A stretch of 64,000 bases of DNA from an uncultured Gemmatimonadales bacterium (GTDB lineage Bacteria > Gemmatimonadota > Gemmatimonadetes > Gemmatimonadales > JACORV01): assembly GCA_963835535.1 (NCBI GenBank), contig CAWIFL010000002.1, positions 649,011 through 713,010 of the forward strand, written 5' to 3'. Below the pieces are notes generated by a model. The model saw only the letters and a list, made by a program, of their open reading frames with translations. It searched no databases and was not told the DNA's origin. The stretch's first letter is position 1. Each line of letters starts with the position of its first letter. Positions 40,194 through 57,111 of this stretch are shown in pieces. Position numbers and translations under genes: made by a program.

Positions 40194-41461
40194 CGGCGCA
40201 GGCGCAGGCGACGCCGGCGGCCGCCACGCGGCCGCCTCGCCCGAAGACCATCGTTCTCCTCTGCCAGCATTTCTTCCCCGAGATGATCTCGACGGGGATC
40301 CACATGACGGAACTGGCCGTCGCCCTCACGCGACTGGGCTGGGCCATCAGCGCCGTCTGCGCCCAACCACGCCTGCTGGTCGCAACCAACAACGCGCGCG
40401 TCCCGACCCAAATGACATACCAAGGCATCAGGATAGCCAGATCCGGCGCCTTGGGTTCACATGACGGCCTCGCGAGCCGGCTGCTCTTCGCGATGACGTT
40501 TTCGCTGACCAGCATCGTGCAGGTCCTCCGTGTCGGGCGCGGGGCGCGGGGCGTCGTCCTGACAACCAACCCTCCTTTCCTTGGCTTGGCGGCGTGGCTG
40601 ATCAGCAAGATGCGTTTCTTACCCTACGCGCTCATTGTCTACGATGTCTACCCGGAGATCGCAGTTCGCCTCGGCGTGGTCCGAGCCGGGTCCTTCCTGG
40701 AGCGCCTGTGGGAGCATCTGACTCGGGCCGTGCTGAACGAGGCCGCCGCAGTGATCGTGATCGGCCGGGACATGGAACCGATCATCGCGGCCAAGATGCG
40801 ACCCGACCGCCGAGAGCGCATTCGACTCATCCCGAACTGGTCGGACGACCACGTCGTCGCTCCGATGCGGCCGGAGGAGAACCCGTTCATTCAGGAGCAT
40901 CACCTTCACGGGCGGTTTGTCGTCCAGTACGCCGGTCGAATGGGGCGCACGCACAACCTCGAGCCGCTGGTCGCGGCAGCCGATCTGCTGCGTGACGAGG
41001 GCATAGTCTTCCAGTTCATCGGCGATGGGGCAAAACGTAGTGACCTGCTCACGCTGTGTCGCGTCCAGGGCTTGTCAAACGTCGTGTTCCTTCCCTACCA
41101 GCCGATGGAGCGGCTGCGCGAGATGCTGGCAGCCGCTGACGTCTCCGTGGTATGCCTGGAGCGCCAGTTCACCGGACTCTCGGTGCCCAGCAAGACCTAC
41201 GGCGTGATGGCTGCGGGAAGGCCAATCCTCGCCTTCCTCGATCCGGAGAGCGAGATAGGACGAACAATCGTGGAGAACAACTGCGGTGTGGTGCTTCGGG
41301 ATCCCACTGGCACGCAAGTGGCTTCTATCGTCCGCGAGCTGAAGCAGAATCGTGCCCGACTCGAGCGAATGGGGCAGAACGGCCGATCCGCGTTTCTGGC
41401 GAACTACACGCTCAGTCTCGCAGCCCAGCGGTACGATGCCTGCCTATCCGCCGTGCTCTGA
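40190..41461 (+). CDS. GT4 glycosyltransferase (WcaI-like)
   Basis: GTG 40190 forms a GTGA overlap with the GME stop. It begins KTIVLLCQHFFPEMISTGIHMTELA. The C-terminal part reads VSVVCLERQFTGLSVPSKTYGVMAAGRPILA. Confidence 0.7.
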   Translation: MTAQAQATPAAATRPPRPKTIVLLCQHFFPEMISTGIHMTELAVALTRLGWAISAVCAQPRLLVATNNARVPTQMTYQGIRIARSGALGSHDGLASRLLFAMTFSLTSIVQVLRVGRGARGVVLTTNPPFLGLAAWLISKMRFLPYALIVYDVYPEIAVRLGVVRAGSFLERLWEHLTRAVLNEAAAVIVIGRDMEPIIAAKMRPDRRERIRLIPNWSDDHVVAPMRPEENPFIQEHHLHGRFVVQYAGRMGRTHNLEPLVAAADLLRDEGIVFQFIGDGAKRSDLLTLCRVQGLSNVVFLPYQPMERLREMLAAADVSVVCLERQFTGLSVPSKTYGVMAAGRPILAFLDPESEIGRTIVENNCGVVLRDPTGTQVASIVRELKQNRARLERMGQNGRSAFLANYTLSLAAQRYDACLSAVL

Positions 41462-42658
41462 CCTGCCATTTGCAGCGGCGGGCCGTAGCACCTCTCGGTA
41501 CAGGGTCTCAAGCCGTGACACCACCGCAGGAAGCGTGTAGTCCCGAACGAGGATCTCTCGGCCTGCCGCCCCAAAGCGTGCGCGCAAGCCGGGATCATCA
41601 AGCAGGCGCCGCAACCCGCTAGCCATCGCCTTGCTCTCGCACGGGACAACGATCGCGGCTCGATCCCGAAATGCTGGCGCCAGCTGGCAGCCTTCTGAGA
41701 GAAGCATCGGCCGAGATGCGGCGCAAGCCTCCAGAACCACCATCCCGAAGGAATCGTAGCGGCTTGGCAGCGCGAACACATCCGCGTCGATCATGGCTTC
41801 GATTACCTCCCTATCGTCGTGTAGCGGGCCCGTCATCACGATGGATCGCCCCCGCGCAGCGCGAGCAATCATCTCTCGCAGTTGCCCTGCGAGCCCATGA
41901 TCGGGGCCAACGAGCACGAGCACCGCATCCGCAGCCTGGAGCTCGCAGAAAGCTCGCAGGAGCACGTCGGGCCCCTTCGTCAGCTCGAGCCGCCCAAGGA
42001 ACAGGACCATGCGGCTCTCCGGCGCAATGCTGTGACGGGCGCGAAATCGCCCGCGCTCGGGAAGCGGCTCAAGACGCGTGAGATCGAGCCCATTGGGCAC
42101 GACAACGGAGCGCTCCCGGCTCACTCCCGCTTGCGCGAAAAGCTCCCTCTCGCTTTCCGTATCAGCGATGAAGCGGGAAGCGCCCTCAAGCAGCGGCCGT
42201 CCTAGCCATCGGTCGTAGACTCGCTTGAGCCGCTGACTCCGCTCTCCAGGCCGAAGGGTTCCGTGTGGCTGAAGCAGGTATGGCACTCCAGCTCTCCGCG
42301 CAGCCCGAGCGGCTGCGTAGGCGAGGAACGATCGGAACTCATGTAGATGCAGGAGGTCGTGCACCCTCAGTTCGGCCTCCAGCCGCCGCGCGGCTCCATG
42401 GACGTAGTGTGGACCGAAGCTCCCTGGCCACCAAGGAATCGTCGACGTCCGGAGGTAGACCACCCGAACTCCGTCCTCGGTAATGCGCTCCTCCGTACCA
42501 GGAAAGAGTGACGTGCGCCGATCTCTGCGATTGGTGCAGATGTACGTGACTTGATGTCCGCGAGCCACCAGCGCTCGGGCGTTGGCCTGCGCGACTCGTA
42601 CGGAGCCGCCGAGGTTGTCTCCGGCACCGAAGCCGAGAGCCTCAAAAAGTATGCGCAT
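41444..42658 (-). CDS. GT4 glycosyltransferase
   Basis: Intact 404-aa ORF beginning MRILFEAL. Signature DADVFALPSRYDSFGMVVLEACAASRPMLLSEG. Its 3' end overlaps the convergent gene by 18 nt. Confidence 0.8.
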   Translation of the reverse strand: MRILFEALGFGAGDNLGGSVRVAQANARALVARGHQVTYICTNRRDRRTSLFPGTEERITEDGVRVVYLRTSTIPWWPGSFGPHYVHGAARRLEAELRVHDLLHLHEFRSFLAYAAARAARRAGVPYLLQPHGTLRPGERSQRLKRVYDRWLGRPLLEGASRFIADTESERELFAQAGVSRERSVVVPNGLDLTRLEPLPERGRFRARHSIAPESRMVLFLGRLELTKGPDVLLRAFCELQAADAVLVLVGPDHGLAGQLREMIARAARGRSIVMTGPLHDDREVIEAMIDADVFALPSRYDSFGMVVLEACAASRPMLLSEGCQLAPAFRDRAAIVVPCESKAMASGLRRLLDDPGLRARFGAAGREILVRDYTLPAVVSRLETLYREVLRPAAANGRSEHGG

Positions 42659-42931: not shown

Positions 42932-44098
42932 TCATGACGCTCCCGTGGCGCCGGCCCGGGCCAGCAGCTCGGCGTAGACGTGACGAAGAACCTCCACCTC
43001 GCGCTCGACCCCGAACTCGGGCGCCCGAGCCCGTCCGGCCTGGGACAGTCGCCCCCACAACGCGGCGTCTCGCAGCAGGCGCACCACTCCCGCGGCGATG
43101 GCTGCGGGGTCCTTGGGTGGGACCACCAGCCCGTCCTCGCCGTGCCGGACGATCTCCGGCACCACGGCCACGTTCGTCGTCACGAAGGGCGTGCCGACCA
43201 GCCACGCCTCGAGGAGTACCCGGGGCAGGCCGTCGTAGCCAGGGTCTGACGGGAACACGAACACGTCCAGCTGCGCCATCGCGCTGCGCCCCTCTGGCAC
43301 CCACCCCACGAAATCCACCCGGTCCCGAACCCCCATGTCACCCGCAAGCGCCTCGAGCGACGGGCGGTAGGAACCATCCCCCACCACGCGGAAGCGCACC
43401 TCCGGGACCGCCTGGACGATGGCCGGAGCGGCCCGCAGCAGGTGCTGCACCCCCTTTTCCGGGATGAGCTCCCCGATTGTGCCCACGACGGGCTGATCGC
43501 GCCGCAGTCCCTGACGCGGGGCGTCGCCCGCATCCAGTTCTACGCCGCTGTATAGCACCTGCACCTGATCCGGGGCGTACCCGAATTCCTCGATCAGCTC
43601 ACGCCTCGTCGCCCCGGAGATAGCCAGCACCCGGTCGATGCGGCGTCGCGCCAAGCCGATGCCGGCACGGTAGAGACGCGCCTTCCACGCCGACGTGTGC
43701 GCCACGAGATAGCCGATTCCCGACGACACTACCACCGGCACGCCAGCCAGTCGCGCCGCCACGCTACCGAGGATATCCCCCTGGACCATCACCGAATGCA
43801 CGATGTGGGGACGCTCGGCCTTGAACAAACGCCGCAGCGCAGCGATCGCGGGCACGTAGAGCAACGCCGGAGACCGCAGTGCACCGACGTGGATTAGCCG
43901 CACGTGAGGCCAGGGCGCCAACGCGGCCTCGACCCGCTCAGGCTCGCGCGAAAAGTATGCCAGAGACAGATCGTAGCAGTCCGCCGTGAGGTGCCGGATC
44001 CATCCCCGAAGTATGTCAAAGCCCCCGCCACGCGCTACCAGGGGGGAAACCACCCAAATGACCTTGAGCCGCGACACGGGCGCGAAATCTACGGCCAT
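42932..44098 (-). CDS. GT4 glycosyltransferase
   Basis: LKVIWVVSPLVARGGG at the N-terminus. FVFPSDPGYDGLPRVLLEAWLVGTPFVTTNV signature. ATG 44098 is preferred over 44152. Confidence 0.75.
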   Translation of the reverse strand: MAVDFAPVSRLKVIWVVSPLVARGGGFDILRGWIRHLTADCYDLSLAYFSREPERVEAALAPWPHVRLIHVGALRSPALLYVPAIAALRRLFKAERPHIVHSVMVQGDILGSVAARLAGVPVVVSSGIGYLVAHTSAWKARLYRAGIGLARRRIDRVLAISGATRRELIEEFGYAPDQVQVLYSGVELDAGDAPRQGLRRDQPVVGTIGELIPEKGVQHLLRAAPAIVQAVPEVRFRVVGDGSYRPSLEALAGDMGVRDRVDFVGWVPEGRSAMAQLDVFVFPSDPGYDGLPRVLLEAWLVGTPFVTTNVAVVPEIVRHGEDGLVVPPKDPAAIAAGVVRLLRDAALWGRLSQAGRARAPEFGVEREVEVLRHVYAELLARAGATGAS

Positions 44099-44161
44099 CC
44101 ACTCGAGGACACCAGCGGAGCGACGATTGCAATACGATTCTCGGCGACCCACATTTCACGC

Positions 44162-45619
44162 GTGGGCACGCAAGATCTCGCGCTCCCTAGGGTCCAGGCC
44201 GGTCTGGGGGCCGACAGCCCCGGCGGTCGCCTCACGACCAAGGCGACCGCCGGTTATCTCGCGGGCAGTGCGCTTGTGGCTGCGTTGGGCGCAATGGTCC
44301 ACTCCGGTCCGCAAACCGACGCTCTGGTCGCCGGTGCGTTCCTCGCCGCATTGCCCTGGCTGCTGGCAGCCAGCACCGAGTCGCTGCTGGTTCTCACCGT
44401 GCTCGCGCTCCCGTTCGACACGTGGAAGATCTGGTCGGTGCTGTCCGCTACGAATGTGCTTATCACGATCGTGGTTCTCCGGATGGTCTTCGACGCCGCG
44501 CGCGGGGTGCGCCGGTTGCGGCCGAGTTTCGCGTACCGGCCACTCCTTGCGGTGGGCTTCGCCGTCGTCGCATCGACCGCGTTGGCCGCGGATCGCGCCA
44601 GCGCCGCCCGCCTTCTTGTGTCGGTGTTCGGGGCCGGTGGCTTCGCCGTGGCTCTTGTGAACTACGCTGACCGCCCACAGGTACGCGAGCGTCTGCTCGA
44701 TGCCCTCTTTGCAGCCAGTCTCGTGATGAGCACGACGGCGATTGTACAGTTCATTGCGTACCAATACGGGCGGGAATTGTGGGCCCCCTCTGCGGCGTAC
44801 TATGTGTACAATCTCGGCAGCTACCAGATCAAGGCGAGCGGCCTGTTCAACGCGCCCGGCAACCTTTCGGCCTACCTTCTGCCTGGCGTCGCGTGCGGCT
44901 TGGTCTTGTGGGGCCGACCACTGCCCGGCGTTCAACGTGCGATTCGCAATATCGCCACCGTGCTCTGCGTCGCGGCATCCGCACTCACCTTCACACGCGC
45001 GTCGCTGCTGACAATCGCAGTTCTTGGCACCGGCATCGCCATTGCGAAGTTATCCAGCCGGCTGCGCCATGTGTGGACGGCAGTGCTCACCGCGATCACA
45101 CTGTCCGCGGTCGCAGCGATTGTTGCCGGCCCGAGGTTGATTGCGTTCCTCACCGCAATGAGTCCGTTCTCTGTCTATAGCCGTGCGAGTATCTACCTAG
45201 GTGCGCTCGACAGCTTCCGAGCGCACCCGGTCTTCGGCACGGGACTCGGCGCGCAGGTTCACCAGAACTGGACGAATCCGGAGTTGTACGACCTCGCCTC
45301 CTCGGTAACATCCCAGGACATTGGCGCGAACACCGTCGCCCCGCGCGATACGCACAGCACGCCGCTGCAGATCGCCGTCGACATGGGGATAGTCGGGCTG
45401 CTTGCCTACGGGTGGCTGTTTGCTGCGACGTTCCGCCGCGGAGTCCGCGCTGTACGAGCGCCGGATCAGGACGATCGGGCCGTGGCGGCGGCGATGCTGG
45501 CCGCCACCCTCGGCACGCTCTTTGTGCTTCTCTTCAACGATGGTGTGGCGATGAAGCCACTGTGGATGATGCTCGGGTTGCTGTGGACCCTGGCACCCGG
45601 GGCATCAACCGCCTCCTGA
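44162..45619 (+). CDS. O-antigen ligase/polymerase-family membrane protein (Wzy-like) 2
   Basis: Polytopic ORF with a Wzy_C-like segment (ALTFTRASLLTIAVLGTGIA) and a periplasmic loop containing HPVFGTGLGA. The start (GTG 44162) is uncertain. The upstream part of ORF 43904-45619 is antisense to the GT4. Confidence 0.7.
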   Translation: MGTQDLALPRVQAGLGADSPGGRLTTKATAGYLAGSALVAALGAMVHSGPQTDALVAGAFLAALPWLLAASTESLLVLTVLALPFDTWKIWSVLSATNVLITIVVLRMVFDAARGVRRLRPSFAYRPLLAVGFAVVASTALAADRASAARLLVSVFGAGGFAVALVNYADRPQVRERLLDALFAASLVMSTTAIVQFIAYQYGRELWAPSAAYYVYNLGSYQIKASGLFNAPGNLSAYLLPGVACGLVLWGRPLPGVQRAIRNIATVLCVAASALTFTRASLLTIAVLGTGIAIAKLSSRLRHVWTAVLTAITLSAVAAIVAGPRLIAFLTAMSPFSVYSRASIYLGALDSFRAHPVFGTGLGAQVHQNWTNPELYDLASSVTSQDIGANTVAPRDTHSTPLQIAVDMGIVGLLAYGWLFAATFRRGVRAVRAPDQDDRAVAAAMLAATLGTLFVLLFNDGVAMKPLWMMLGLLWTLAPGASTAS

Positions 45620-46691
45620 CCGCCTCCGCAGCCTCGGGAGCAGAGGGCCAACTCGCCTGCGAAACGTCGCCGCCACGGCCTGCAGTTGCTCACGCTGCAA
45701 CTCGTAGAACACCGCCCAGCTTGCCGTCAGTCCGAGCATCACGACAGCGACGCCAATGAGTGTCCGGCTCCGGTTTGGAGCCGACTTGCGAGTTGGGACC
45801 AGCGCCGGCTCTATCACCGTGAGCACAGGCGACTCGTCGGCCTCCCTGATGCGGGCCAGCTCCAGCTCCCGGCTGAGTGAGAGGTAGAGGTCCTGTCTGA
45901 TGTCCAGCTGTCGCCTCAGCCGCCCCTCCTCGAACCGTAGGGCCGGCGATTTGTCGAACGACCGGTTCCGCTCGTAGAACCCGCGCAGCGCGGCCTCGGC
46001 CTCGGTGAGGGCACCCTCAGCCTCGTGCACCCGCGATTCCGTGAAGACCCGGCGGCTCTTCGCCTGGGACTGCCGAGAGTCCCGGTTGAACAGCAGCAGG
46101 CGGTGCACGAACTCGTCGGCTATGCCGGCGGCGAGGGCTGGCTTGGCCGCGACCACGGTGAGACGCACTACACCGGTCGGGCGGTCAACCGAGAACGTCG
46201 GTGAGCCCGCGCAGCGTATTGGCTGCGCGCTCCAGGCGTCGGGGGAGCGGTTCCGTGCCGGGCTCCAGGTAGTCCACCAGCGTGGCGGAGTCCGATGCCT
46301 CGCCCGCCTGCCCGCGCATGAGCCCTCCGAACCGGGTCTGCAGGACGCCGTAAACGATGGGTGTACTGCGCAGCAAGTCGCCGTAGAACTGCGGAGTCTG
46401 CCCCGGCTCGGCTGCGCCGACCGTGATCCCGGCCACCGCCGCCAGGCCGGCCAGGGTGGAGCTGGCGCTGCCGGCGCGCGTCTCCGGCACGAAACTGGTC
46501 ACCGCCCTGTAGCTGTTGGGCGTCAGGAGCACGAAGACAAGGGCGACGACGGACGCCGCTGCCGCGACCCCGATCACGGCGCGCCACCGACGGGCCAGCG
46601 CCACAGCCACGTCCACGAGGAGCGGGTCTCGATCCACACCAGCTGCAGTCCCGTTGGCCATGTCTACCTCAACCCTCGTTGCGCTGCTCAC
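45605..46691 (-). CDS. Polysaccharide co-polymerase (Wzz-like) 2; one frameshift as assembled
   Basis: ORF 46185-46691 holds the N-terminal TM segment and Wzz-like start. ORF 45605-46168 holds the coiled-coil region FYERNRSFDKSPALRFEEGRLRRQLD, similar to paralogue 1, plus the C-terminal TM segment. The frames join near 46165-46190. Confidence 0.7.
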
Positions 46692-46694
46692 CGT

Positions 46695-47312
46695 CTAGCG
46701 GCGCTCGCCCACCACCCGCGCGGGGATGCCAACGGCGATGGCGTACGGAGCGAGATCCTTGGTGACGATCGCCCCGGCGCCCACCACAGCGCCCGTCCCG
46801 ACCGTCACCCCACCCAAGACTACGACCCCCACACCGAGCCACACGTCGTCGCCGACGATAACGTCGGCTTCTTCAAACCCTTGCTCGCGGATCAGCCGAG
46901 CCCGGTCCTTGTACCGATACTGGCCGCCGACCAGTGAGACGAACTGGGCAATGCGGACGTCGTGCCCGATCTGTATCCGCCGACTACTGCGGATGTTGAC
47001 GTGAGCCCCGATGTAGACGTCGTCGCCGATCTCCACTACGGCCCCTTCGTCGACTGCGATCTCACACCCCTGCATCACGGCACTCCGATCGCCGACCCTC
47101 AGCGTCCCATCGGCAAGAACGGTAACGCTCCCGAGCCCACGCAACGTGGATCCGCGACCGAGCTTCAAGATGGCGCCGTGGTTGAGAAGGAGCGACGTGG
47201 ACCACGCGACGCGGCTTCGTCGCGCCGGGAATGTAGCAGCGAGCGCCACTTTCTTGAACGCACCCCGAGCACGACGTGCGAACGGGGCGAGCAGGAATGA
47301 AGGCCCGGCCAT
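46695..47312 (-). CDS. Hexapeptide-repeat (LbH) acetyltransferase
   Basis: Repeats IGDDVYIGAHVNI, IGHDVRIAQFVSL and VGDDVWLGVGVVVLGGVTVGTGAVVGAGAIV. Confidence 0.8.
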   Translation of the reverse strand: MAGPSFLLAPFARRARGAFKKVALAATFPARRSRVAWSTSLLLNHGAILKLGRGSTLRGLGSVTVLADGTLRVGDRSAVMQGCEIAVDEGAVVEIGDDVYIGAHVNIRSSRRIQIGHDVRIAQFVSLVGGQYRYKDRARLIREQGFEEADVIVGDDVWLGVGVVVLGGVTVGTGAVVGAGAIVTKDLAPYAIAVGIPARVVGERR

Positions 47313-47319
47313 CGGCGCG

Positions 47320-49014
47320 TCAGTCTAGCGCCGCGTCATCGTGCATACGAGCGGCCAAGAACGGTGTGCCCTCGACGATCCCGCGGCACACGGCGTCGAG
47401 GTTCGCGTCTTTCCCTTCGTCCAATTCGGACAGGGACGCATAGCGCAGCTCTGGGAGATTCCCAACGGACTCGTAGCGCACCTGGTGGAGTGAAATCGAT
47501 GCGCGGAAAATGGCGTAATACGCATAGCGACGCCATGCCTCGATGCGGGCAGCGTCACCCTTGGCGATCCGGCCCGACAAGACCGCGTCAAGCGCTGCGC
47601 GATACTCCTCGCGCGTCGCGGGTTCTATGGAGAGCCCCAGGCCACGGTAGTAAACGTCGCCCGCCAGAATCACGGGAACGCCCCGCACGCCCATCTCGAT
47701 CCCGGTCGTCGAGCCGTACACGAGACCGCAGTCTGCCAGGCTCATCAGCACGTAGGAGCTCGCGCCGCTCTCTGGGGGCACAACGATCACGTTGGGGGGC
47801 AGCGTCGGGAATCGTTGCCGCAGCAACTCGACCACCGAATCGCGTCCCGCTCCGGGGAGGATCACCTCCGCAGGGTGAACCCGAATGACGAGCTGCGCCT
47901 CCGGCCGCTCCGCAAACGCACCCACCGTTTCCACGATCCAATCCGCCATGCCGCCGAACCCAATGTCCCGCTCGAACAGGGTGGAGTCCCAGGTGATGTT
48001 CGGGAAGAGCACGGCGAGCCGCCTCGAGCGGTCGATGGCAAACTCGGCGCAGATCGCCTCGGCCGAGGACTCCAGGTTCGGGAAGTAATTGAGGAGGTAT
48101 CCCCCGCCCGTCGCGCGCTCGGCCAGATACCGGTCCAGGCGCTCGCTCTCCTCGCGGGTCAGCGGCTGGTTCGCAAACTGCGGCCAGTAGGCCGGATCCG
48201 CCACATCGGTGGCGCGATCATGCCGGAAAAAGAATGTCTCCGGCCGGAAGCCGACTTCCCAGGTGATCACATGAACGCGGCGGCGCTCCGCCGCCTCGAC
48301 CATGATCCATTCCGGGGCAAATAGGCCGTTCAACAGCACCACGGCATCCGGCCGGCGCCGGTCCAGCAGCAACTCGCACGCGTCCACCAGCCACACAGCC
48401 GAAACCAGCCACTCGCGATAGGTGGCGAGCGATTCCGGGTCTGCCGTGATCTTGTCAGTGCGCAGGAAGTGCGCCACCGAATGCCGCGTTAAGCGGCCGA
48501 TCGCATAGCCGCGATACTCCATGCCGGGGTAGTCCGGCGGGGCGAGCGCATCCACCAACGCCTGCGCCCGTTTCCGCGCTCCGGGAGGGAGTAGCTGGCC
48601 GAGCCACTCGGTGTCATGGCCGACCAGACGATGGCCGTGACTAGCGTACAGATGGCAGGCCCGACACACCCAGTGGCTGAGACGGGGGTAGTTGCCAGTG
48701 TTGCAGCTTCTCTTGAGCACACGATCGCAGCCCAGGACGGCCACGGAATGGCCGCGGCGCTGCAAGCTCCAGGCCAGAGTCGTGACCATCGCCACCTGGT
48801 CGCGCTCCTGCCGCGTCGCGAAGAACAGCACCCGCTTCCCGCCCGCGCCGGCCGTCGGGGGGGGTGCCCCACGCCGCAAGCGTCGCAGTTGCCGGAAGTA
48901 CGCGGTCTCGAGCCACGGCAGCGCGAGACGGGCGCGCCACCAGAGGAACAGGCCCAGCCGCCATGCCGCAGGGACCCGGCCGCGGAAGAACGCCTTGAGG
49001 CGCCGCACGCTCAT
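47320..49014 (-). CDS. Capsule-polysaccharide-biosynthesis-type GT-B enzyme (KpsS/KpsC, PF05159-like) 1
   Basis: ATG 49014 (MSVRRLKAFF). RVLFFATRQERDQVAM...GHSVAVLGCD, a Cys cluster (SCNTG...HWVCRAC) and IRVHPAE in the C-terminal Rossmann half. The family call comes from overall pattern only. Confidence 0.45.
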   Translation of the reverse strand: MSVRRLKAFFRGRVPAAWRLGLFLWWRARLALPWLETAYFRQLRRLRRGAPPPTAGAGGKRVLFFATRQERDQVAMVTTLAWSLQRRGHSVAVLGCDRVLKRSCNTGNYPRLSHWVCRACHLYASHGHRLVGHDTEWLGQLLPPGARKRAQALVDALAPPDYPGMEYRGYAIGRLTRHSVAHFLRTDKITADPESLATYREWLVSAVWLVDACELLLDRRRPDAVVLLNGLFAPEWIMVEAAERRRVHVITWEVGFRPETFFFRHDRATDVADPAYWPQFANQPLTREESERLDRYLAERATGGGYLLNYFPNLESSAEAICAEFAIDRSRRLAVLFPNITWDSTLFERDIGFGGMADWIVETVGAFAERPEAQLVIRVHPAEVILPGAGRDSVVELLRQRFPTLPPNVIVVPPESGASSYVLMSLADCGLVYGSTTGIEMGVRGVPVILAGDVYYRGLGLSIEPATREEYRAALDAVLSGRIAKGDAARIEAWRRYAYYAIFRASISLHQVRYESVGNLPELRYASLSELDEGKDANLDAVCRGIVEGTPFLAARMHDDAALD

Positions 49015-49024
49015 TCCCGCGCCC

Positions 49025-50511
49025 TCATCGGCGGGCGCCGAAAAGGCGATGCCCGGCGAAGCGGGCACAGGCCCCCAGCAGCGTCTCGTCGTCGTGGCCG
49101 ACCAGGCGAGAGAGCGCGCGCGGGGGACCGGAGACCGCCTCGCGGCACTCAAGCACGCGGTCGCGTTCCGCGTCCCTGCGCTGCGCCAGGCGCCGCGTCA
49201 CGGCCGCCTTCGGCCCGGCGACGAGGCGCGCAACCAGTGCCGCGACCGATCGGACCTGCAAGCGCCGCCCAGCCCGGCGCGCCTCGCGGTGGCAGTATGC
49301 GCCCGCGTCCGCTCGCAGCCGGCCCCGGAGCGCCCGCGCGGCCTCGGGCGGCGGGGCAGCCGCCGCGGCACGCTCCTCCAACACGCGCCACACCCGCTTC
49401 GACGCCTGGCCGTCAATCGGCCCCAAGTAGGCCTCAACGAACGCCATCCGGTCACGCTCCTGTGCCTTGGTCGGCAGCCTCGGCTCAACGTCTCGCAGAC
49501 GGCGCCCCAGGTCCTCGGCGGAGACGGCGACCTCAATGCAACCGTCCAGTTCGTGGTAGGGGAGCAGGAGTCCCTTGACCCGCTGGACGGCGTCGGTCCA
49601 GAACGTGTACACGACCCGCTTGCCCGCAGCCATCGCCTCCGCGAGCGCCGTCGTCTGGAAACCCACGACGACGTCGCTGGAAACGATCAGCTCCCGCGTG
49701 TCTGCGTCCCCGGGGAGGAGCGTCACTCGCGGCACGCCGTCGATCCGCCGATGAATCCCCTCCAGCATCTCGGCGTTGTGCTGGGGATGGGGCTTCATGA
49801 GCACCTCCACCCGCCCTTCCGCAGCGACGTTGCGGAGAACTGCCTCGGTCTCGCGATACATCGCCTCCCAAGGCCGGTGCGCAGCGCCGAGCCCCCGCTC
49901 CTCGTCGTAGGCGTCGAGGTCGTAGCACAGGAAGAGAACGCGGTGCCCCCCCCCGCCGCGCGCCGCGGCCAGCGCTCCGGATGCCGATAGTAGTCGAAGC
50001 GCGGCTGCCCGGCCACCGCAACCTGCTCAGGCTCCGCACCGGCCGCCACCCAGAACACCTTCGACTTCTCGCAGCACGTGGTCATCCAGTCGCCCTTGAA
50101 GGGGAACCACCGGCGCATCTCCCCGGCGTGCTTGGCCAGCGAGGTGGCGGAGACACCCGTCTCCTTCTGGACGACCACGAAGGGCACTCCCAGCTCGCGG
50201 CAGGCGTCGATCACGTCGCGGATGTAGAAGAACGTATCCGATGGCGAGACGAACAGCTCGAAAGGGAAGACGCGATAGAGGTCCCGCAGGAGCTCAAAGG
50301 CCAGCGTCCGGTAGCGCGTGCGCGCTTCCGCGTATTCCGCCGCGTGGTAGCGAGCGAGGTCGCTGCCCCACACGTCCCGCGGGAAAAAGCGCTCCGCCAC
50401 CCGGGCGAAGTACATCGGTGACACAGTGCGGATCACGTGCCGCCCGTCGTCCGCGAGCTGCAGCTCCACGATGTCCTGCGCGAAGTGATGGTCCAGGATG
50501 AGAACGTTCAT
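49025..50511 (-). CDS. Capsule-polysaccharide-biosynthesis-type GT-B enzyme (KpsS/KpsC-like) 2; frameshift in a C9 run
   Basis: The N-terminal ORF starts at ATG 50511 (MNVLILDHHF...SPSDTFFYIRDVIDACRELGVPFVVVQKE). The C-terminal ORF 49025-49861 contains VLMKPHPQ. The frames join exactly at the C9 run 49946-49954 (...RRAAGGG | HRVLFLCYDLDAY...). Confidence 0.45.
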
Positions 50512-50518
50512 GGCCACC

Positions 50519-52039
50519 TCAAGAACGCGCGGGAGCGACCCGCAACCCCACGAGCGAACGCAACAGCGCGCGCTCCGGCGCGTCGGTCCCGATGGTGACA
50601 AAGAGCGCGGCTGCCAAGACCAACGCCCCGCCGCCGTACGCCGCCGCGAGCACCAACGTGTCCGCCGGGCGCACGATGCTGAGGCCGCCAACCACTGCTG
50701 CGCCGATCAGCGCTGGCGGGTACGCCCTCACAAGCACCTGCTGGGCCAGCTCCTTCACACCGATGTCTAGGGTCCGCAGGCACAGCCGGAGGTAGAGGAC
50801 CGACGAGACCGAGTTGCCGACCAGAGTCCCCCACAGCACGCCGGCGATGCCCAGCCACGGGGTTGCCACGATGCTGATCAGTAGGTTCAGCCCGGTCGTC
50901 CAAACGGCGATGCGCACGATGGCGGCGATGCGGTCCATCCCTACCATCAGGTTCCAGCCGACCTGGACCAGCCCGAAGTACAGCGTGTAGACCAGCATCA
51001 GGCGGACTAGGCCGGCGTCCACGGTGAACGCCGGGCCCAGCCAGAGCCGCAACAGGGGGCGTGCCAACACCATGATCACCAGCGAGATGGGCACGGAGAT
51101 CGCCACGGAGTACTTCGTCGCCGTCATAAACAGCTTGCGCAACTGCGGCCGGTCGCCGACGGCGTAGAGCGCCGACGCCCCGGGCATGACCACCGAGCTG
51201 ATGAAGCCGGTGGCGATCAGGGCGAGGGCATGGAACCGAGCAACGACATCGTAGTGGGTCAGCGCAGTCGTGGTCATCATCACGCCGAGGATGGCCTTGT
51301 CCATCTGATTGTATACCAGCCCGTTGATGCGCAACAGCAGCATCTGGCCGGAGACCCGGGCCATCCGCATCACTGCCGGTCCCGACACCTGGCGGGAAAG
51401 GCGCAGCGACGGCAGCAGACGTCGCGCGGCGACACTCGCCGCCAGCAAGTTCGCACCCGACAGCACGAGTACCACGACCCCGAGCATTACGGCCCCCGCT
51501 CCGTTCCGAAGTGCGACCACGGCCGCCACGGCGAAGATCGTGGAGCGGGCCGCGTCGAAGGCCGCCAGCAGGTCGTAACGTTGAAGCCCTTCGATTACGC
51601 CGAGGACAGCCATGGCAGGGAATTCGATGAGCGACTGCAGCGCCATGATCGTCAATAGCACTTCGGCCGTGCGGACGAGCTCGGGCGGGATGTTGAAGGT
51701 CCGCGTAAGGAAGGCGTACGCGAAGACGAGGACGAGGAGCGCCGCGACGACGGCGATAGCGGCGAAGGCCGCCAGCGCCGCACTGAAGAGCACGTTCACG
51801 CGGTCTGTCTCGCCTCGCGCGTGGTGCTCCGCGATTTGCTTGACGAGGGCCCCTTGGATGCCCAATGAGAACAGAGAAAGGTAGCCCGCCACCGAAAACG
51901 AGAGTACGAGGACCCAGACCCCGTAGAGCGCGGCGCCGAGAGACCGGATCAGGAAGGGCGTGAGGATCACGCTGACGGCCATGCGCCAGACGAAGCCGAG
52001 CATCGTGAGCACGGAATTGCTCGCCACCCGCCTCAGCAC
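50519..52039 (-). CDS. Wzx-type polysaccharide flippase (MOP superfamily) 3
   Basis: Intact 506-aa polytopic ORF, beginning MLRRVASNSVLTMLGFVWRMAVSVILTPFLIRSLGAALYGVW. Confidence 0.75.
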   Translation of the reverse strand: MLRRVASNSVLTMLGFVWRMAVSVILTPFLIRSLGAALYGVWVLVLSFSVAGYLSLFSLGIQGALVKQIAEHHARGETDRVNVLFSAALAAFAAIAVVAALLVLVFAYAFLTRTFNIPPELVRTAEVLLTIMALQSLIEFPAMAVLGVIEGLQRYDLLAAFDAARSTIFAVAAVVALRNGAGAVMLGVVVLVLSGANLLAASVAARRLLPSLRLSRQVSGPAVMRMARVSGQMLLLRINGLVYNQMDKAILGVMMTTTALTHYDVVARFHALALIATGFISSVVMPGASALYAVGDRPQLRKLFMTATKYSVAISVPISLVIMVLARPLLRLWLGPAFTVDAGLVRLMLVYTLYFGLVQVGWNLMVGMDRIAAIVRIAVWTTGLNLLISIVATPWLGIAGVLWGTLVGNSVSSVLYLRLCLRTLDIGVKELAQQVLVRAYPPALIGAAVVGGLSIVRPADTLVLAAAYGGGALVLAAALFVTIGTDAPERALLRSLVGLRVAPARS

Positions 52040-52842
52040 GCCAGAGCCCCCCGCTTCCTCAATATGATCGTTCGCAGAAACATCCCCGGGACCGCTTCGC
52101 GAGACTCCTCGTCCTTCGCCACGTCCACGTCGCCTCGGCCCGCGAGCCAGCCCGCGTAGTCGTGATTGTAGATCCTGAAGTCGGCGCCGAGGTGCTCGAT
52201 CCCGGGTGGCTCAGACGGGTTCCGGTACTCCACGAGCACAACGTAGGCGCCGCTCACCCGCAGCAGTTCCTCGAGGCCCCGACGCGCATCCGACGCGGGG
52301 AGATGCATGATCAATGCGGACGTGAACACGACGGAGAACGAAGCGGTGCGGAACGGCAGCGCATACGCGCTGGCGCCCGCGAGCAGAGCCCGCCCGGGCG
52401 CCGAAGCGCAGCGGAGCGCGGCGACCCCGACGTCGATGCCGACGAGCTGTGCCGTGGGGACGCGCTCGGCGAGCAGCGCAAGGTTCGCGCCGAAGTTGCA
52501 GCCGACCTCAAGCACCGACGTCGGGGCGAGCGCAACGAGGTCATCCACCAGGGCGAGGCGCCGTCGGTCCGCGGCGTAGCCGCGGCGATTGCGCTCTGCC
52601 CACGCCGTCGCTGACCGCCTCCACACTGCCTCATCCTCACCCGCTCGCAGGCTGACGCCCACCCACGCGGCAATCCCGGCCTTCGCCGCACGGGCAGCGG
52701 CGCTGACGAAGAGCGTCTCCCCGGCGTAGGCCAGGGCCTCGCCGAGCCCGAGTGGGCGCCGGCAGAGCGCGTATAGGAAACGGTACGCGCGGCGCAGCGG
52801 CGTGATGCGCCGAAGACGGTCGCGCAGCGGTGCGGGCAGCAC
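52033..52842 (-). CDS. Class I SAM-dependent methyltransferase
   Basis: SAM motif I VLEVGCNFGANLALLA, with downstream IDVG and VVFTSALIMHL. Confidence 0.65.
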   Translation of the reverse strand: MLPAPLRDRLRRITPLRRAYRFLYALCRRPLGLGEALAYAGETLFVSAAARAAKAGIAAWVGVSLRAGEDEAVWRRSATAWAERNRRGYAADRRRLALVDDLVALAPTSVLEVGCNFGANLALLAERVPTAQLVGIDVGVAALRCASAPGRALLAGASAYALPFRTASFSVVFTSALIMHLPASDARRGLEELLRVSGAYVVLVEYRNPSEPPGIEHLGADFRIYNHDYAGWLAGRGDVDVAKDEESREAVPGMFLRTIILRKRGALAC

Positions 52843-53024
52843 GGTCCTACCCCGGGGCCCGGAGGGTGCGGCAGCCGGAGTTCTGCCGGATTAGGCGTTC
52901 GAACATCGTGTCCCGGCCGATGCGCGTCGAGACCTTGCGCGGCAGTCGAGTCGAGGTCGTGCGCGCCTGCGCCGGCGCTACCACCCGTCGTGCCGCGCTC
53001 ACCGCCGACCCCACCAGAGAAGCA

Positions 53025-53915
53025 TCACGCCTTGGCCCAGAGACTGGGCACGACGACCGCCTCGGGAAGATCCCGCAGCGCAGCGATCAGCGCCGTCTTG
53101 ATGTCGGGCCAGCCCGGTGGCGGCGGGCTGGAGGCGAAGGAGAGGTCCTCCTCGAGGTGCGCCATCGTGTCGACACCGAACACAATGTGGTCCGCCGGCC
53201 CGTCCAGGGCGAAGCGGAACGCCGCCTCCGCGGGAGAGATGCCGAACCGCACACAGACCCGCTGGAACGCCTTCACGAACGGCCGCGCATGCGCCAGGCG
53301 GTCCGGAACGCTGGCGGGCTCCATGACGACCAGACCCTGGCAGAACGGCGACCGTGCGTACACGCGGGTACCGCGCTCGCGCGCCCGGTCGAACACACCG
53401 GAAGCCGCGAACCGCCGGTCGAAAACCGAATACGGCAACTGCACGATGTCCTGGCCGGGGAGGAGGGCGTCGAACTCGCTCGGGAAGTAGATCGACGCCC
53501 CCACGTGCTGGCAGAGACCCCCGTCACGGGCCGCGAGCAGGGCCGCGACCATTGCGGGGTCCGCGCCGTACTGCGGCGTGTGGAACAGGATGCCGAGCGG
53601 CGACTCGGCGCTCCGCGCCAGGCGCGTGCGGCTCGCCAGGACCTCACTCGCGACCAGGCGGGGGAGGTGGTCGGGGTGCGCCGAGAGGAGCGGCAGCAGT
53701 TTCGTGGTCAGCGGCACCCCTGGTGAGACGGCGCTGCCGATGAGTTCTTCGGCCACGCCGTAGGCCGCGGCCGTGTCCAGCCCGAGCCCGGCCCGTTCCG
53801 CTGCCCGCAGCATTTCGACGCACTCCGCACGCGTCGGGGCCCGCTTCGCGTTAAGTCCGTAGCGGGTGCGGTCATGCCCTCCGAAGGCCGCAGTTCCGAG
53901 GCACAGCCGTCGCAT
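53025..53915 (-). CDS. Aldo/keto reductase family oxidoreductase
   Basis: ATG 53915 (MRRLCLGTAAFGG). LDTAAAYG motif and TIM-barrel-like periodicity. Confidence 0.65.
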   Translation of the reverse strand: MRRLCLGTAAFGGHDRTRYGLNAKRAPTRAECVEMLRAAERAGLGLDTAAAYGVAEELIGSAVSPGVPLTTKLLPLLSAHPDHLPRLVASEVLASRTRLARSAESPLGILFHTPQYGADPAMVAALLAARDGGLCQHVGASIYFPSEFDALLPGQDIVQLPYSVFDRRFAASGVFDRARERGTRVYARSPFCQGLVVMEPASVPDRLAHARPFVKAFQRVCVRFGISPAEAAFRFALDGPADHIVFGVDTMAHLEEDLSFASSPPPPGWPDIKTALIAALRDLPEAVVVPSLWAKA

Positions 53916-53991
53916 CACGCCGTCATCTCCTCCTCCAATCGGGTGGCGGCCCCCCTCGGCGCGCCGCGCTCCGGATCCAAAGCGCCCGGAC

Positions 53992-55049
53992 TCACGCCTC
54001 CCGTACGAGGGGCCAGGACAGAGGCGTACCCCGCGCGATGTCGCACGCCGCCGCCTTGCCGATGACCCCGTCCAAAAACCGGGGGGCCAATCCGTACCCC
54101 GGGCGGATCGATCGAACGTTCCTCGCCGTGAACCGCTGCCCCGCTGCCACATCCTCGACGACGTACAGGGACCGTCGGAGCACGACACTCCCTTCCTCAG
54201 CGACTCCCGGTCCGAACGTCGCACGCCCCAGCATCCCCTCCGCCCGGCGCACCTCGCGCACCAGCTCCCCGAGCTCCGCGGGCTCAAGCGAGAAATGGCT
54301 GTCCACACCCCCGTCCGAGCGCCGCAGCGTCAGGTGCTTCTCCACCAGGCAGGCGCCCAGCGCGACCGCAACCACCGGCGCTAGGTGTCCGCCGCTGTGG
54401 TCGGACAGCCCAACGAGACAGCCCGTCTCGGCGGCGAGCACGGGGATGCTGCGCAGGTTCATCGAGTCGTCGGGAGCGGGATAACTGCTCGTGCACTTGA
54501 GGATCACCACGTCAGCGACCCCTGTTTCGCGCAATACGTCGACCGCGTGCACGATCTCGTCGCGCGTCGCCATCCCCGTCGAGAGGATGACGGGCTTTCG
54601 CGTCTTCGCGACCACCCGCAGGAGTGCGTCGTCCACCAGCTCGAACGACGCGATCTTGTACGCCGGAGCCTCCAGGGCCTCCAGAAACTCCACCGCCGTG
54701 GCGTCGAACGGCGTTGAGAAGATCTCCATGCCGAGGCCGCGGGCCTCAGCGAAAAGCTCCGCGTGCCACTCCCACGGCGTGTGCGCCTCGCCATACAGAT
54801 CGTAGAGCGTCCGCCCCCCCACGGCCCGCCCCCGGGGACGACGAAGTCTGGCTTGGCGCAATCTATCGTAAGAGTGTCCGGCGTATACGTCTGCAGCTTG
54901 ATCGCGTCCACTCCCGCAGCGGCCGCGGCGCGGACGAGCTCAAGCGCGCGCTCGCGGCTTCCGTTGTGGTTGCCGGAAAGCTCGGCAACCAGGAAGGCTG
55001 GTCGCCCGTGGCCCACCGTCCGCTGGCCTATGCTAACCGTGTGTTCCAT
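53992..55049 (-). CDS. pseI: Pseudaminic acid synthase-like nonulosonate synthase (NeuB family); frameshift in a C7 run
   Basis: FLVAELSGNHNGS, DAIKLQTYTPDTLT | TLYDLYGEAHTPWEWH, YKIASFE, PVILSTGMAT, LKCTSSYPAP, GLSDHS and a C-terminal SAF domain. The two ORFs join at the C7 run 54813-54819. Confidence 0.8.
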
Positions 55050-55083
55050 ATCATGCCCGTCGTCCCCAAGAGAGCGAGAACAC

Positions 55084-57111
55084 CTAGTTCAATCGCTTGA
55101 ATGCCGCGTGACATACCGGTCCTTTCAGAAGGCTGATCGCATTCCGACCATTTTCGCACTCTGCGATCAACCCGAATACCGGATCAAGCGCCTCAAAGTA
55201 CCGATCTACAATCGAGCCGGTGTGTTCGACGCAGACATACACAGAGTCCGCCGCCAGGAATCCCTTCTTGAGCATCTCTTGCGTGAGCAAGGTCTTGTAA
55301 GCGAGTGCATTGGCGCTTTGGATAGTAAAGCCGGCCAGGGCGGGCAAGCCCCAGTGACTGATCCTGAGCCCATGCGTGTCCGCCAATTGTTGCCACCGCT
55401 TTCTGACCTGCAGCCCCATCTTGGTGATGGTCTCCCAGGACTTCGTTCGCTCCATCACATCCAGGGTCGCCAGGGCGGCAGTCGGGCCGATGCGCTCGGT
55501 CCAGAACGTGCTGCTGATGAAGGTCTCTTGGGCGGCTTCCATGACTTCACGTTTGCCAATGCACGCTGTGATGGCGTAGCCGTTGCCAAGTGCCTTGCCG
55601 AACATGGCCATATCGGGCTGTACACCGTGTTTCTTGTGCAGGCCACCGAAGGTCTCGCGGAAACCTGACGTGCATTCGTCAAAGATCAGGACAATGCCTT
55701 TGTCCGTGGCCAGCTTGCGGATCTTTTCAAGGAAGCCATCTTCCGGCGCAACGTTGCGGGACACCTCCATCATGATCACGCCGATGTCGTGCTCACGCAT
55801 CAGGCCTTCAAGTTCTGGGAAACTGTTGTAGCGGAACGGCAGCACACTGCCACGGAGGCTCCGAGGAACACCCTTAGGTTGCAGGCCCGGCAACAGATGG
55901 CCGGCGAGGTTCTCTTCGTCCCCCAGGTTGGCGGCAAGATACCAGTCATGCCAGCCGTGGTAGCCGCAAATGGCCACCTTGTCTTTTCCGGAAGCCGCAC
56001 GTGCGATCCGGATGGCGATCGCATTGGCCTCGCCGCCCGAGCGTGCCAATCTCACCATGTCGGCCCAAGGATGCATGGCGACCAAACGTTCGGCCAAATA
56101 GACCTCCTCCGGGCAGTTGAGGGTGGACATGTTGCCGGCGGCAACGGTGCGCTGCACAGCTTCGTCCACTTCCGGATGGCCGTAACCGAGGATATTCGTG
56201 CCGATGCCCATGATCGACATGTCAGTATATTCGCGCCCATCCATATCCCAGACCTTGCAGCCTTTGGCTTTGCTGAAGTAGGCGGGCCATTGTTCTGGCA
56301 AGAACATTTCGGCACGCTTTGATAGCAGCATGTTGCCACCCGGAATCACCCTTTTGGCGCGCTTCCAGAGTTTCTGTCCGGTACTCATCATCGCTCCTTC
56401 GTTGCGACTCAAGCGTTGATTGGCGGCAAAAAGGTCGGGCCTAGCCTTGCGTAATCGCATGACTTCAAGCCAAGAGAAGTCTGTGCGCAGCGCGAAACTC
56501 TCGTAGACGGCCTTGATGACCGCAAGGTCCTCCGGCTCATCGACCGTCCAGCGTTCGCCGGAACAGTCCTCCGTGTGGGAGATGTTGAGGATGCGGAATT
56601 GGCCGGATTCCCGGATATAGGTGGTGACATGCTCGCGTTCGTGCGGCTGGCCTGCCCTTTGCCACGCGGTTCGCAGGGCAGCGAATGTGAATGCCTCGGT
56701 ATCGAGACCATCCGGATAGGTGGGCGGGTTGGTATTGCAGGCGTAATCGGCGCCGCCAGCCTTCAACGGGGCAATGACGCTATCGACAATCTGAGGGTCT
56801 ATTAGCGGACAGTCGCCTGTGATGCGTACCACGATATCCGGCTCACGGACTGCGGCAGCCTGGTAATAGCGATCCAGCACATCGTCTTCGCTGCCCCGAA
56901 AGACGCTGTAGCCAAGCCTGCGAACGTGATCAACCAGCGGCTGGTTGCGAGGGTCTTGTGTGGTGGCGACCACGATCTGGTCGATCTGTTGCGATCTGGC
57001 CAGTCGTCTGAGCAACAACTCAATCATCGGCACCCCACCAATGGGTTGCATGACCTTGCTGGGGAAACGAGTTGACCCCATGCGAGCTTGGACGATGGCA
57101 AGGACTTTCAC
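55084..57111 (-). CDS. Fusion protein: SpsF/CMP-type cytidylyltransferase (N-terminal ~240 aa) plus class-III PLP aminotransferase, glutamate-1-semialdehyde aminomutase-like (C-terminal ~430 aa)
   Basis: The N-terminal domain reads MKVLAIVQARMGSTRFPSKVM...RITGDCPLID. The C-terminal domain reads ARSGGEANAIAIRIARA, DECTSGFR and MAMFGKALGNGY (PLP lysine). Intact 675-aa ORF in the lower-GC block. Confidence 0.75.
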   Translation of the reverse strand: MKVLAIVQARMGSTRFPSKVMQPIGGVPMIELLLRRLARSQQIDQIVVATTQDPRNQPLVDHVRRLGYSVFRGSEDDVLDRYYQAAAVREPDIVVRITGDCPLIDPQIVDSVIAPLKAGGADYACNTNPPTYPDGLDTEAFTFAALRTAWQRAGQPHEREHVTTYIRESGQFRILNISHTEDCSGERWTVDEPEDLAVIKAVYESFALRTDFSWLEVMRLRKARPDLFAANQRLSRNEGAMMSTGQKLWKRAKRVIPGGNMLLSKRAEMFLPEQWPAYFSKAKGCKVWDMDGREYTDMSIMGIGTNILGYGHPEVDEAVQRTVAAGNMSTLNCPEEVYLAERLVAMHPWADMVRLARSGGEANAIAIRIARAASGKDKVAICGYHGWHDWYLAANLGDEENLAGHLLPGLQPKGVPRSLRGSVLPFRYNSFPELEGLMREHDIGVIMMEVSRNVAPEDGFLEKIRKLATDKGIVLIFDECTSGFRETFGGLHKKHGVQPDMAMFGKALGNGYAITACIGKREVMEAAQETFISSTFWTERIGPTAALATLDVMERTKSWETITKMGLQVRKRWQQLADTHGLRISHWGLPALAGFTIQSANALAYKTLLTQEMLKKGFLAADSVYVCVEHTGSIVDRYFEALDPVFGLIAECENGRNAISLLKGPVCHAAFKRLN

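Follow-up and report, generated by a model that had tools for sequence, protein, structure and literature searches.

Two putative CMP-nonulosonate transferases in a Wzx/Wzy-type polysaccharide locus of an uncultured Gemmatimonadales bacterium

We analysed two adjacent genes, here called gene 1 and gene 2, in a 64-kb stretch of DNA from an uncultured Gemmatimonadales bacterium (GenBank assembly GCA_963835535.1, contig CAWIFL010000002.1, positions 649,011 to 713,010 of the forward strand). This whole stretch is referred to as the window and its numbering is used throughout; the description of the locus and the domain scans were confined to it. The two genes are adjacent minus-strand open reading frames (ORFs) that exactly fill positions 47320-50511 and belong to a long minus-strand polysaccharide locus. 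The reading that we favour, with somewhat better than even confidence, is that both encode transferases for a CMP-activated nonulosonate, namely a derivative of pseudaminic acid (Pse), that they serve a Wzx/Wzy-type locus and that the interruption of gene 1 at a run of nine G (G9) is an artefact. The main evidence for the use of a CMP-nonulosonate by both enzymes is their association with genes for Pse or legionaminic acid (Leg), which was found in every context examined and in several phyla. A first-pass annotation of the same DNA, made from the sequence alone, had described two tandem genes in this interval, one of them carrying a C9 tract, and the ORFs confirm this anatomy.

Sequence families and models of the two enzymes

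The first-pass annotation had taken both genes for tandem KpsS/KpsC-like enzymes of the PF05159 type. This holds for gene 2, if remotely, but not for gene 1. Gene 2 runs from an ATG at 49014 to a stop codon at 47320-47322 and is intact; its product of 564 aa is 100% identical to the database protein P0001. It matched PF05159 (Capsule_synth) with E=0.024 and 14.5 bits, below the gathering cut-off of 20 bits, while 22 of its 28 relatives match this family at E<=0.01 (best 3.8e-11). In searches of the Protein Data Bank (PDB), the single sequence found KpsC only at E=0.24. The family profile matched four KpsC structures, the best being 6mgd at 5.4e-5, and this match is limited to a C-terminal motif of 47 residues, S-S-Y...Y-G-S-T-T-G-x-E...G-x-P-V. 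The AlphaFold2 (AF2) model of gene 2 (pLDDT 91.6) has the glycosyltransferase B (GT-B) fold, and KpsC entries have the highest target TM-scores (0.50-0.53) among the 50 Foldseek hits listed for it.

Conservation was assessed in 124 full-length representatives of the gene 2 family. H380-P381 is conserved in 100% of them and the motif S435-T-T437...E440 in 99%, and R378, E440, D343, C96, C104, C117 and C120 are conserved in 97-100%. The four cysteines (97-99%) form a C-x7-C-x12-C-x2-C insert in the N-terminal Rossmann domain (residues 96-120, window 48655-48729) and, judging from the sequence, are probably a structural zinc site. To our knowledge, such a Cys4 site has not been reported for KpsC or KpsS. 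A run of eight C on the coding strand of gene 2 (48857-48864) is in frame and encodes Pro-Pro-Pro in a variable N-terminal linker. The family is large: the profile search returned 11,141 clusters of 50% identity at E<=1e-3, 7,267 at E<=1e-10 and 2,907 at E<=1e-30. Among the 150 representatives listed, most are full-length, with about 560 aa. In Azospirillum thermophilum and Legionella adelaidensis, RefSeq annotates the members of the family as 'hypothetical protein'. We place gene 2 in the PF05159 (KpsS/KpsC/KpsS1) superfamily, as a divergent branch that carries the Cys4 insert, and regard it as a putative CMP-nonulosonate transferase.

Gene 1 begins with an ATG at 50511, seven bases past the stop of the Wzx gene, and its stop codon lies at 49025-49027, so that ten bases separate it from gene 2. 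Its frame is interrupted at the G9 run (C9 on the plus strand, 49946-49954). Insertion of one G or deletion of two, giving G10 or G7, would restore the frame and yields a continuous protein of about 495 aa (495 aa with one G added), which can be aligned over its full length with uninterrupted relatives (490-510 aa, identity up to 66%). In the Pfam search, no match of gene 1 to PF05159 was obtained, nor any to PF04464 (Glyphos_transf, TagB/TagF) at E<=1. Among the NCBIfam models, it matched NF046086 ('BFO_1060 family glycosyltransferase') with 3.4e-11 and 42.9 bits at model positions 209-361 only, TIGR04396 ('surface carbohydrate biosynthesis protein') with 5e-9 and 35.8 bits against a cut-off of 125, and TarB weakly. 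All 61 relatives of gene 1 searched match NF046086 (best 1.7e-25) and 59 match TIGR04396; at E<=0.01, 5 of 62 match PF05159, and 1 of 62 matches a polysialyltransferase family. By these searches, gene 1 is a homologue of NF046086 in its C-terminal domain and not a member of that family. For gene 1, the outcome is formally the 'TagF-like' assignment that the first-pass annotation had named as contrary to its proposal, but the nearest curated family is still NF046086, a family of nonulosonate transferases.

The AF2 model of gene 1 (pLDDT 92.7) also shows a GT-B fold, with long C-terminal helices. Invariant in the family are D92, R98, E117, G168-Q-P-R171, K240, H242-P243-Q244, D271, R273, Q286, T288 and E292, and the motifs K240-P-H242-P243 and Q286-T-T288...E292 do not vary in 61 sequences. 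PDB searches with the single protein of gene 1 gave no useful match, the family profile found no solved relative, and a tblastn search against plasmids gave one weak match only. We classify gene 1 as a GT-B enzyme of a TagB/TagF-like, BFO_1060-related family and, as for gene 2, as a putative CMP-nonulosonate transferase.

By BLASTP, no similarity between the two proteins was detected. The family profiles, compared without the protein P0127, which carries a gene 2-like domain, align over 325 columns with a probability of 89% and E=2e-6. In this alignment K-P-H-P of gene 1 stands over R-V-H-P of gene 2, G-F-Q-T-T...E over Y-G-S-T-T...E, and V-V-Q-K-E over I-T-W-E. The motifs are in register, and we therefore place both proteins in the cytidine-nucleotide group of GT-B enzymes, the motif definition of which draws in part on PMC5420450. 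Both fit this class with a GT-B model, a His-Pro motif and a downstream (S/T)(S/T)xxxE in the C-terminal domain. Genes 1 and 2 would thus be distantly related GT-B enzymes of the donor class that includes sialyl-, Kdo- and TagF-transferases, and would belong to different families. As a separate observation, in the single predicted protein P0127 (732 aa, on a 13-kb ENA contig) a gene 1-like protein is combined with a gene 2-like C-terminal domain, whose identity to residues 293-491 of gene 2 is 34%. This may be a genuine fusion that connects both families or an artefact of gene calling.

Nonulosonate genes around the pair

Both genes recur together in Pse loci of related genomes (L002, L006, L008, L009, L013 and probably L014), and hence their pairing is not chance. 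In the close relatives (L002, L006/L007, L008 and L009), they occur with Wzx, NeuB and CTP_transf_3/aminotransferase genes, as well as with hexapeptide transferase, Wzy and GT4 genes. The adjacency of Wzx and gene 1 is kept in L002, L006, L013 and L014, and the hexapeptide transferase takes the same position downstream of gene 2 in L002, L006 and L009. Wzz is intact (343 aa) in L002. A search for related loci with the closer set of relatives returned only three.

Members of the gene 2 family were found with nonulosonate genes in L002, L003, L006, L008-L013, Azospirillum and Legionella. A gene for CTP_transf_3 or an acylneuraminate cytidylyltransferase lies close by in all of these loci, accompanied in most of them by NeuB or PseB/PseC. 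In a Nitrospirae metagenome-assembled genome (L003), the gene 2-family member lies beside PseB-like, CTP_transf_3 and NeuB genes; it adjoins CTP_transf_3 and DegT in L010 and CTP_transf_3 in L012, and it directly follows a complete PseB/F/G/C/I set in L011. In Azospirillum thermophilum, the family member is encoded in a legionaminic-acid locus on a plasmid (NZ_CP029359.1, 120-145 kb; L015/L017), and in Legionella adelaidensis (NZ_LR134429.1; L016) in an O-antigen-type cluster. These two cultured species may serve as experimental models. In Dormibacterota-type genomes, members of the gene 1 family with about 40% identity are the next genes after Wzx within Pse operons. In one of these (L013), a PF05159-like protein of 580 aa adjoins NeuB in the same locus as the gene 1-family member, and L014 has an unannotated ORF of 581 aa in the matching place.

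The neighbourhood in the window agrees with what the first-pass annotation had stated. Pse-type synthesis genes are close by, with PseB, PseC and PseI all above the NCBIfam cut-offs within 13 kb of the pair; Wzx lies directly upstream of gene 1, with Wzz and Wzy downstream of gene 2; and no KpsMT system is seen, since the scan of ORFs across the window gave no ABC-transporter domain. The features are given in Table 1. Searches of the window for PseG, the UDP-sugar hydrolase, with Pfam, NCBIfam and tblastn (the last using the PseG-PseH fusion of a relative) gave no match, and the FemAB-like Acetyltransf_6 gene of the relatives is absent from the window as well. A PseG-like gene is carried by L008, L009, L011 and L013. 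We rejected the idea that gene 1 or gene 2 substitutes for PseG, as these four carry the PseG-like gene in addition to these genes.

Table 1. Features of the polysaccharide locus and interrupted genes of the window
Feature	Position	Strand	Remark
PseB	61820-62932	-	score above NCBIfam equivalog cut-off
PseC	60633-61826	-	score above NCBIfam equivalog cut-off
GNAT	59801-60418		weak PseH match
SDR and ATP-grasp ORF	57873-59792		candidate fusion
HAD hydrolase	57206-58114		
CTP_transf_3 (CMP-sugar synthetase, PseF-like) and class-III aminotransferase fusion	55084-57111	-	
PseI (pseudaminic acid synthase)	53992-55040	-	split; TIGR03586 370.5 bits against cut-off of 340
Aldo-keto reductase	53025-53918		
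Methyltransferase, Pse-associated type	52033-52842		
Wzx-type flippase	50519-52039	-	directly upstream of gene 1; Polysacc_synt_3, MatE and MurJ matches
Gene 1	49025-50511	-	putative CMP-nonulosonate transferase, broken frame
Gene 2	47320-49014	-	putative CMP-nonulosonate transferase, intact
Hexapeptide-repeat O-acetyltransferase (WcaF/WbbJ-like)	46695-47312	-	directly downstream of gene 2
Wzz chain-length regulator	45605-46691	-	two frames, split near 46194-46200
Wzy-type polymerase	43904-45619	+	Wzy_C domain
GT4 genes (two)	42932-44152; 41444-42658		
Split or truncated exopolysaccharide genes, part 1	5649-5688; 6930-8563; 12730-13911; 15968-16891; 35288-36880		
Split or truncated exopolysaccharide genes, part 2	37046-38111; 39203-40193; 45605-46691; 53992-55040; 62832-63491		

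The left half of the window holds further exopolysaccharide genes of the Wzx/Wzy type, namely two Wza paralogues, Wzz, a Wzi-like gene and a gene with a Wzy_C domain, together with a Bac_transf initiating transferase and genes of the GT4 and GT2 types. The two Wza-type exporters (4165-6926 and 21135-23741) are about 60% identical. With two Wza, two Wzz and two Wzi/Wzy-type genes, the window contains at least two or three neighbouring exopolysaccharide loci.

Two further observations concern the history of the locus. A 49-aa relic of CTP_transf_3 (52856-53002), 71% identical to the N-terminus of the CTP-aminotransferase of a relative, lies between the aldo-keto reductase and methyltransferase genes. 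The window has a G+C content of about 68%, and a block of lower G+C (54000-60000; 0.57-0.63 as compared to about 0.68-0.72) comprises the CTP_transf_3-aminotransferase, HAD, SDR/ATP-grasp and GNAT genes. It seems that part of the Pse tailoring module was replaced via horizontal transfer.

The interrupted reading frame of gene 1

It had been suggested in the first-pass annotation that the nine-base run acts as a switch. The tract does break the frame, but it is not conserved, such runs are not enriched and many other genes are broken at homopolymers. We therefore consider it quite probable that the frameshift is an assembly artefact, an undercall of one base in a homopolymer. The G9 run encodes Gly-Gly-Gly in a variable linker between the two domains of the protein, and L002, L008 and L009 have no homopolymer run there, nor do the aligned proteins of relatives. 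Runs of G or C of at least 7, 8 and 9 bases occur 7, 5 and 2 times in the window, as compared to 16, 4.4 and 1.25 expected from a first-order Markov model, and are thus not enriched beyond composition.

At least eleven other frame breaks were found in conserved genes across the 64 kb. PseI is split at a run of seven G (54814-54820 on the plus strand), and extending this run by one G would bring the gene back into frame. In Wzz the break lies at a GG, and in a Wza paralogue at a G8/G6 stretch. An epimerase gene (39203-40193) has three frame changes, at CC, CCC and AA, which lead to a false 'epimerase-GT1 fusion'. A Wzi-like gene lies in pieces, four further genes are truncated or pseudo-fused (a GT4 gene, a Wzx-like gene, another epimerase gene and a WecA-like gene, the last as a WecA-like/GT2 pseudo-fusion), which fits additional breaks, and a PseB-like fragment is also among the broken exopolysaccharide genes. 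Every break that was resolved to the base falls in a run of identical bases, several of these runs are only 2-4 bases long, and both insertions and deletions occur. The broken proteins are otherwise well conserved, with PseI being 90% identical to that of a relative. Breaks at runs of identical bases and in both directions are the signature of consensus indel errors and not of evolution. A frame-plot scan for frameshifts based on G+C at third codon positions missed the known site in gene 1 and was used as a pointer only.

A second assembly, the only other one of this organism, covers the pair. Positions 1-5555 of the Logan contig L001 (run ERR10755942) correspond to window 46962-52516, and over these 5,555 bases there are zero indels. 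The two sequences differ only at all four GACGTC sites of the interval, each of which reads AACGTC in L001 (window 52434, 51423, 49675 and 47021); at one of these sites, the Asp of the window is the family consensus. In the whole window, there are 29 GACGTC sites. Motif-specific miscalls at a methylated motif are typical of nanopore reads, and the differences suggest a methylated GACGTC (AatII-type modification system) that was miscalled in such reads. L001 was probably built from the same reads as the window assembly and would then not be independent. Because its differences point to nanopore reads, the shared G9 is probably a shared homopolymer undercall. For the other frameshift sites, no independent assemblies were found in exact-protein look-ups with the hexapeptide transferase, the GT4 protein and the aldo-keto reductase.

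The frameshift might instead be real in the DNA. Gene 1 would then be either a phase-variable (contingency) gene that slipped-strand mispairing has currently turned off, or a pseudogene of recent origin in a locus undergoing decay. A G9 run that lies within a glycosyltransferase ORF and determines its frame by its length is the classic architecture of a phase-variable gene; another glycosyltransferase gene contains a second G9, L001 has the same run as the window, and the CTP_transf_3 relic and the low-G+C block speak for a true remodelling of the locus. Nevertheless, we regard a real frameshift as unlikely. The breaks in other conserved genes, some at runs of 2-4 bases and by insertion as well as deletion, argue against it, as do the absence of the tract in the relatives, the chance frequency of G/C runs and the probable lack of independence of L001, whose motif-specific differences point to nanopore reads. 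The second C9/G9 run (27078-27086) forms codons 4-6 of a group-1 glycosyltransferase gene and is in frame; this gene has a GTG start near 27093, which overlaps the stop of the upstream gene, and ends at 25900. Homopolymer frameshifts in this window should not be read as phase-variation switches, and annotation based on its ORFs is unreliable.

Proposed function and comparison with known systems

Both proteins are probably nonulosonate transferases, as the first-pass annotation had proposed by analogy to KpsS1 of Acinetobacter baumannii. This is suggested by the conserved context, by the relation of gene 2 to PF05159 and KpsC and by that of gene 1 to the family of the Tannerella nonulosonate transferases. 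In the pathway that we propose, CMP-activated Pse derivatives would be made by the products of the PseB, PseC and PseI genes and the CTP_transf_3 domain, with the PseF-like/class-III aminotransferase fusion supplying the activated donor, and would be tailored by the methyltransferase, the ATP-grasp enzyme and other modifying enzymes. The products of genes 1 and 2 would each act at the cytoplasmic face of the membrane and add the donor to an undecaprenyl-linked repeat unit; the AF2 models of both proteins have amphipathic terminal helices. Two enzymes could serve two nonulosonate positions, use two differently tailored donors or act as primer and extender. Flipping of the repeat unit would then fall to Wzx, polymerisation to Wzy, chain-length control to Wzz and export to Wza.

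By analogy to KpsS1 and KpsC, gene 2 may be a retaining enzyme in which H380-P381 and S435-T436-T437...E440 hold the CMP moiety, with D343 as candidate nucleophile. Gene 1 may be the counterpart of the Pse/Leg transferases of Tannerella, with K240-x-H242-P243 and Q286-T-T288...E292 and, in the N-terminal domain, D92, R98 and E117.

Several findings weigh against this assignment. Gene 2 misses the cut-off of PF05159, and gene 1 reaches 42.9 bits where the cut-off of NF046086 is 200. Foldseek ranks generic GT-B proteins first for both models, mainly UDP-GlcNAc 2-epimerases, with antibiotic glycosyltransferases as well, and this ranking did not separate the subfamilies. Without PseG and with a broken PseI, the locus as written is unable to make Pse, which may be due to more artefacts or to a missing gene that is encoded elsewhere. 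As to the G9 run, L001 is a second assembly that has the same run and no indel difference over 5.5 kb, and should its reads be accurate, the frameshift would be a true one. Finally, 26 of 62 relatives of gene 1 match the TagF-like family PF04464 at E<=0.01 (best 5.5e-11), which would fit a polyol-phosphate donor.

Gene 1 might instead be an enzyme of the TagB/TagF type that adds glycerol- or ribitol-phosphate from a CDP-polyol, in which case only gene 2 would move a nonulosonate. Besides the PF04464 matches of its relatives, the weak match to TarB and the K-x-H-P motif, which is common to TagF enzymes, speak for such a role. We nevertheless hold it to be improbable. Among cytidylyltransferase domains, only CTP_transf_3, together with NTP_transf_3 matches that overlap it, was seen in these loci; families of glycerol-3-phosphate or ribitol-5-phosphate cytidylyltransferases gave no match there. 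Moreover, NF046086 is matched by all 61 relatives and TIGR04396 by 59, and in distant phyla the gene is part of Pse operons, flanked by PseF/Wzx and PseH/PseI. The Tannerella nonulosonate transferases are themselves TagB-like.

Another idea is that the pair represents an undescribed module, consisting of a TIGR04396/BFO_1060-like enzyme and a Cys4-containing, PF05159-like GT-B enzyme, which would act as primer and extender in the synthesis of a di-, oligo- or poly-nonulosonate, with the G9 run as a switch of the extender. The genomes in which both gene types accompany Wzx and Pse/Leg genes are Gemmatimonadota-like, Dormibacterota-type and alphaproteobacterial. The primer-plus-extender idea is modelled on KpsS/KpsC or TagB/TagF, here placed in a Wzx-dependent pathway, and we consider the module in this full form quite improbable.

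That the pair are ordinary KpsS/KpsC enzymes building a 3-deoxy-D-manno-octulosonate (Kdo) linker for a KpsMT capsule encoded elsewhere in the genome is very improbable: the remote similarity of gene 2 to PF05159 and KpsC is in its favour, but no ABC-transporter domain was found in the window ORFs scanned, both families occur in Pse/Leg operons with Wzx in all contexts examined in several phyla, gene 2 is a single-module protein of 564 aa with a Cys4 insert whose sequence match to KpsC covers only the 47-residue C-terminal motif, and gene 1 is not a PF05159 protein.

Few transferases for nonulosonates such as Pse and Leg are known, and among polysaccharide Pse transferases, only KpsS1 was biochemically defined in the literature surveyed. 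The main value of our assignment of both genes as CMP-nonulosonate transferases is that it points to a large, unannotated family of candidate enzymes and its partner. The gene 2 family and its gene 1-type partner, as candidate nonulosonate transferases, may allow better annotation of surface glycans in environmental phyla and offer targets for enzymology. The functional idea is plausible but has precedents. Relative to the literature surveyed, three points appear to be new: how deeply the gene 2 family with its Cys4 insert has diverged, how large and unannotated it is, and that it recurrently pairs with an enzyme of the BFO_1060/TIGR04396-like type.

The closest precedent for gene 2 is found in A. 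baumannii. KpsS1, KpsS2 and Gtr59 are PF05159 enzymes located beside nonulosonate modules in Wzx/Wzy loci without KpsMT, which were described in 2014-2015, and the same arrangement is present in E. coli O108 and O165, Photobacterium, Bacteroides and Sphingobium (PMC4487303). The view of the first-pass annotation that PF05159 enzymes are unusual in a Wzx/Wzy locus is thus not supported. KpsS1 from the KL2 locus is a retaining Pse5Ac7Ac transferase, uses a CMP-nonulosonate donor and founded the CAZy family GT118 (Walklett et al. 2024, as cited in PMC12887879). The window and relatives both show the setting of GT118-type enzymes, a Wzx/Wzy locus with an adjoining Pse module. Gene 2 resembles KpsS1 in this context and in superfamily, being a GT-B protein of the PF05159 superfamily beside a Pse module in a Wzx/Wzy locus without KpsMT. 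In contrast to the KpsS1 group, it scores below the PF05159 cut-off, has a conserved Cys4 insert and an amphipathic N-terminal extension, and is paired with a second, unrelated-looking GT-B enzyme, gene 1.

With KpsC and KpsS, the beta-Kdo transferases of group 2 capsules (GT107), gene 2 shares the GT-B fold; its family profile aligns with KpsC only over the C-terminal S-S-Y...S-T-x-G-x-E...G-x-P-V motif, and the target TM-scores of the KpsC entries are 0.50-0.53. No match was obtained between gene 1 and the solved KpsC modules. KpsC and KpsS use CMP-Kdo to build a poly-Kdo linker on a lipid that is exported by an ABC transporter, whereas the window has Pse genes and Wzx/Wzy and no ABC transporter.

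For gene 1, the Tannerella forsythia enzymes provide the precedent. BFO_1060 is the orthologue, in strain 92A2, of Tanf_01245 and TFUB4_00887, which are TagB-like with D/E-D/E-G and HP motifs; when they are deleted, the O-glycan of Tannerella loses its terminal Pse or Leg derivative (PMC5420450). Gene 1 and its 61 relatives resemble these enzymes in the C-terminal domain, profile positions 209-361, which is thought to bind CMP. Both are TagB-like, have the HP motif and lie alongside nonulosonate synthesis genes. In contrast, the score of gene 1 is far below the family cut-off, its N-terminal domain is unmatched, and it belongs to a Wzx/Wzy polysaccharide locus, while the Tannerella enzymes act in protein O-glycosylation. 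With TagB/TagF (PF04464), gene 1 has the GT-B architecture and the K-x-H-P motif in common; it differs in having no PF04464 match itself, no CDP-polyol synthesis genes nearby and a Pse operon as context.

Moreover, gene 1 is a remote homologue of the TIGR04396 protein WP_109334381.1 from Azospirillum thermophilum (hhalign probability 96%, E=3e-9). This protein's gene has Leg synthesis genes on one side and neuB on the other, and at a distance of 8 kb there is a member of the gene 2 family annotated as 'hypothetical protein'.

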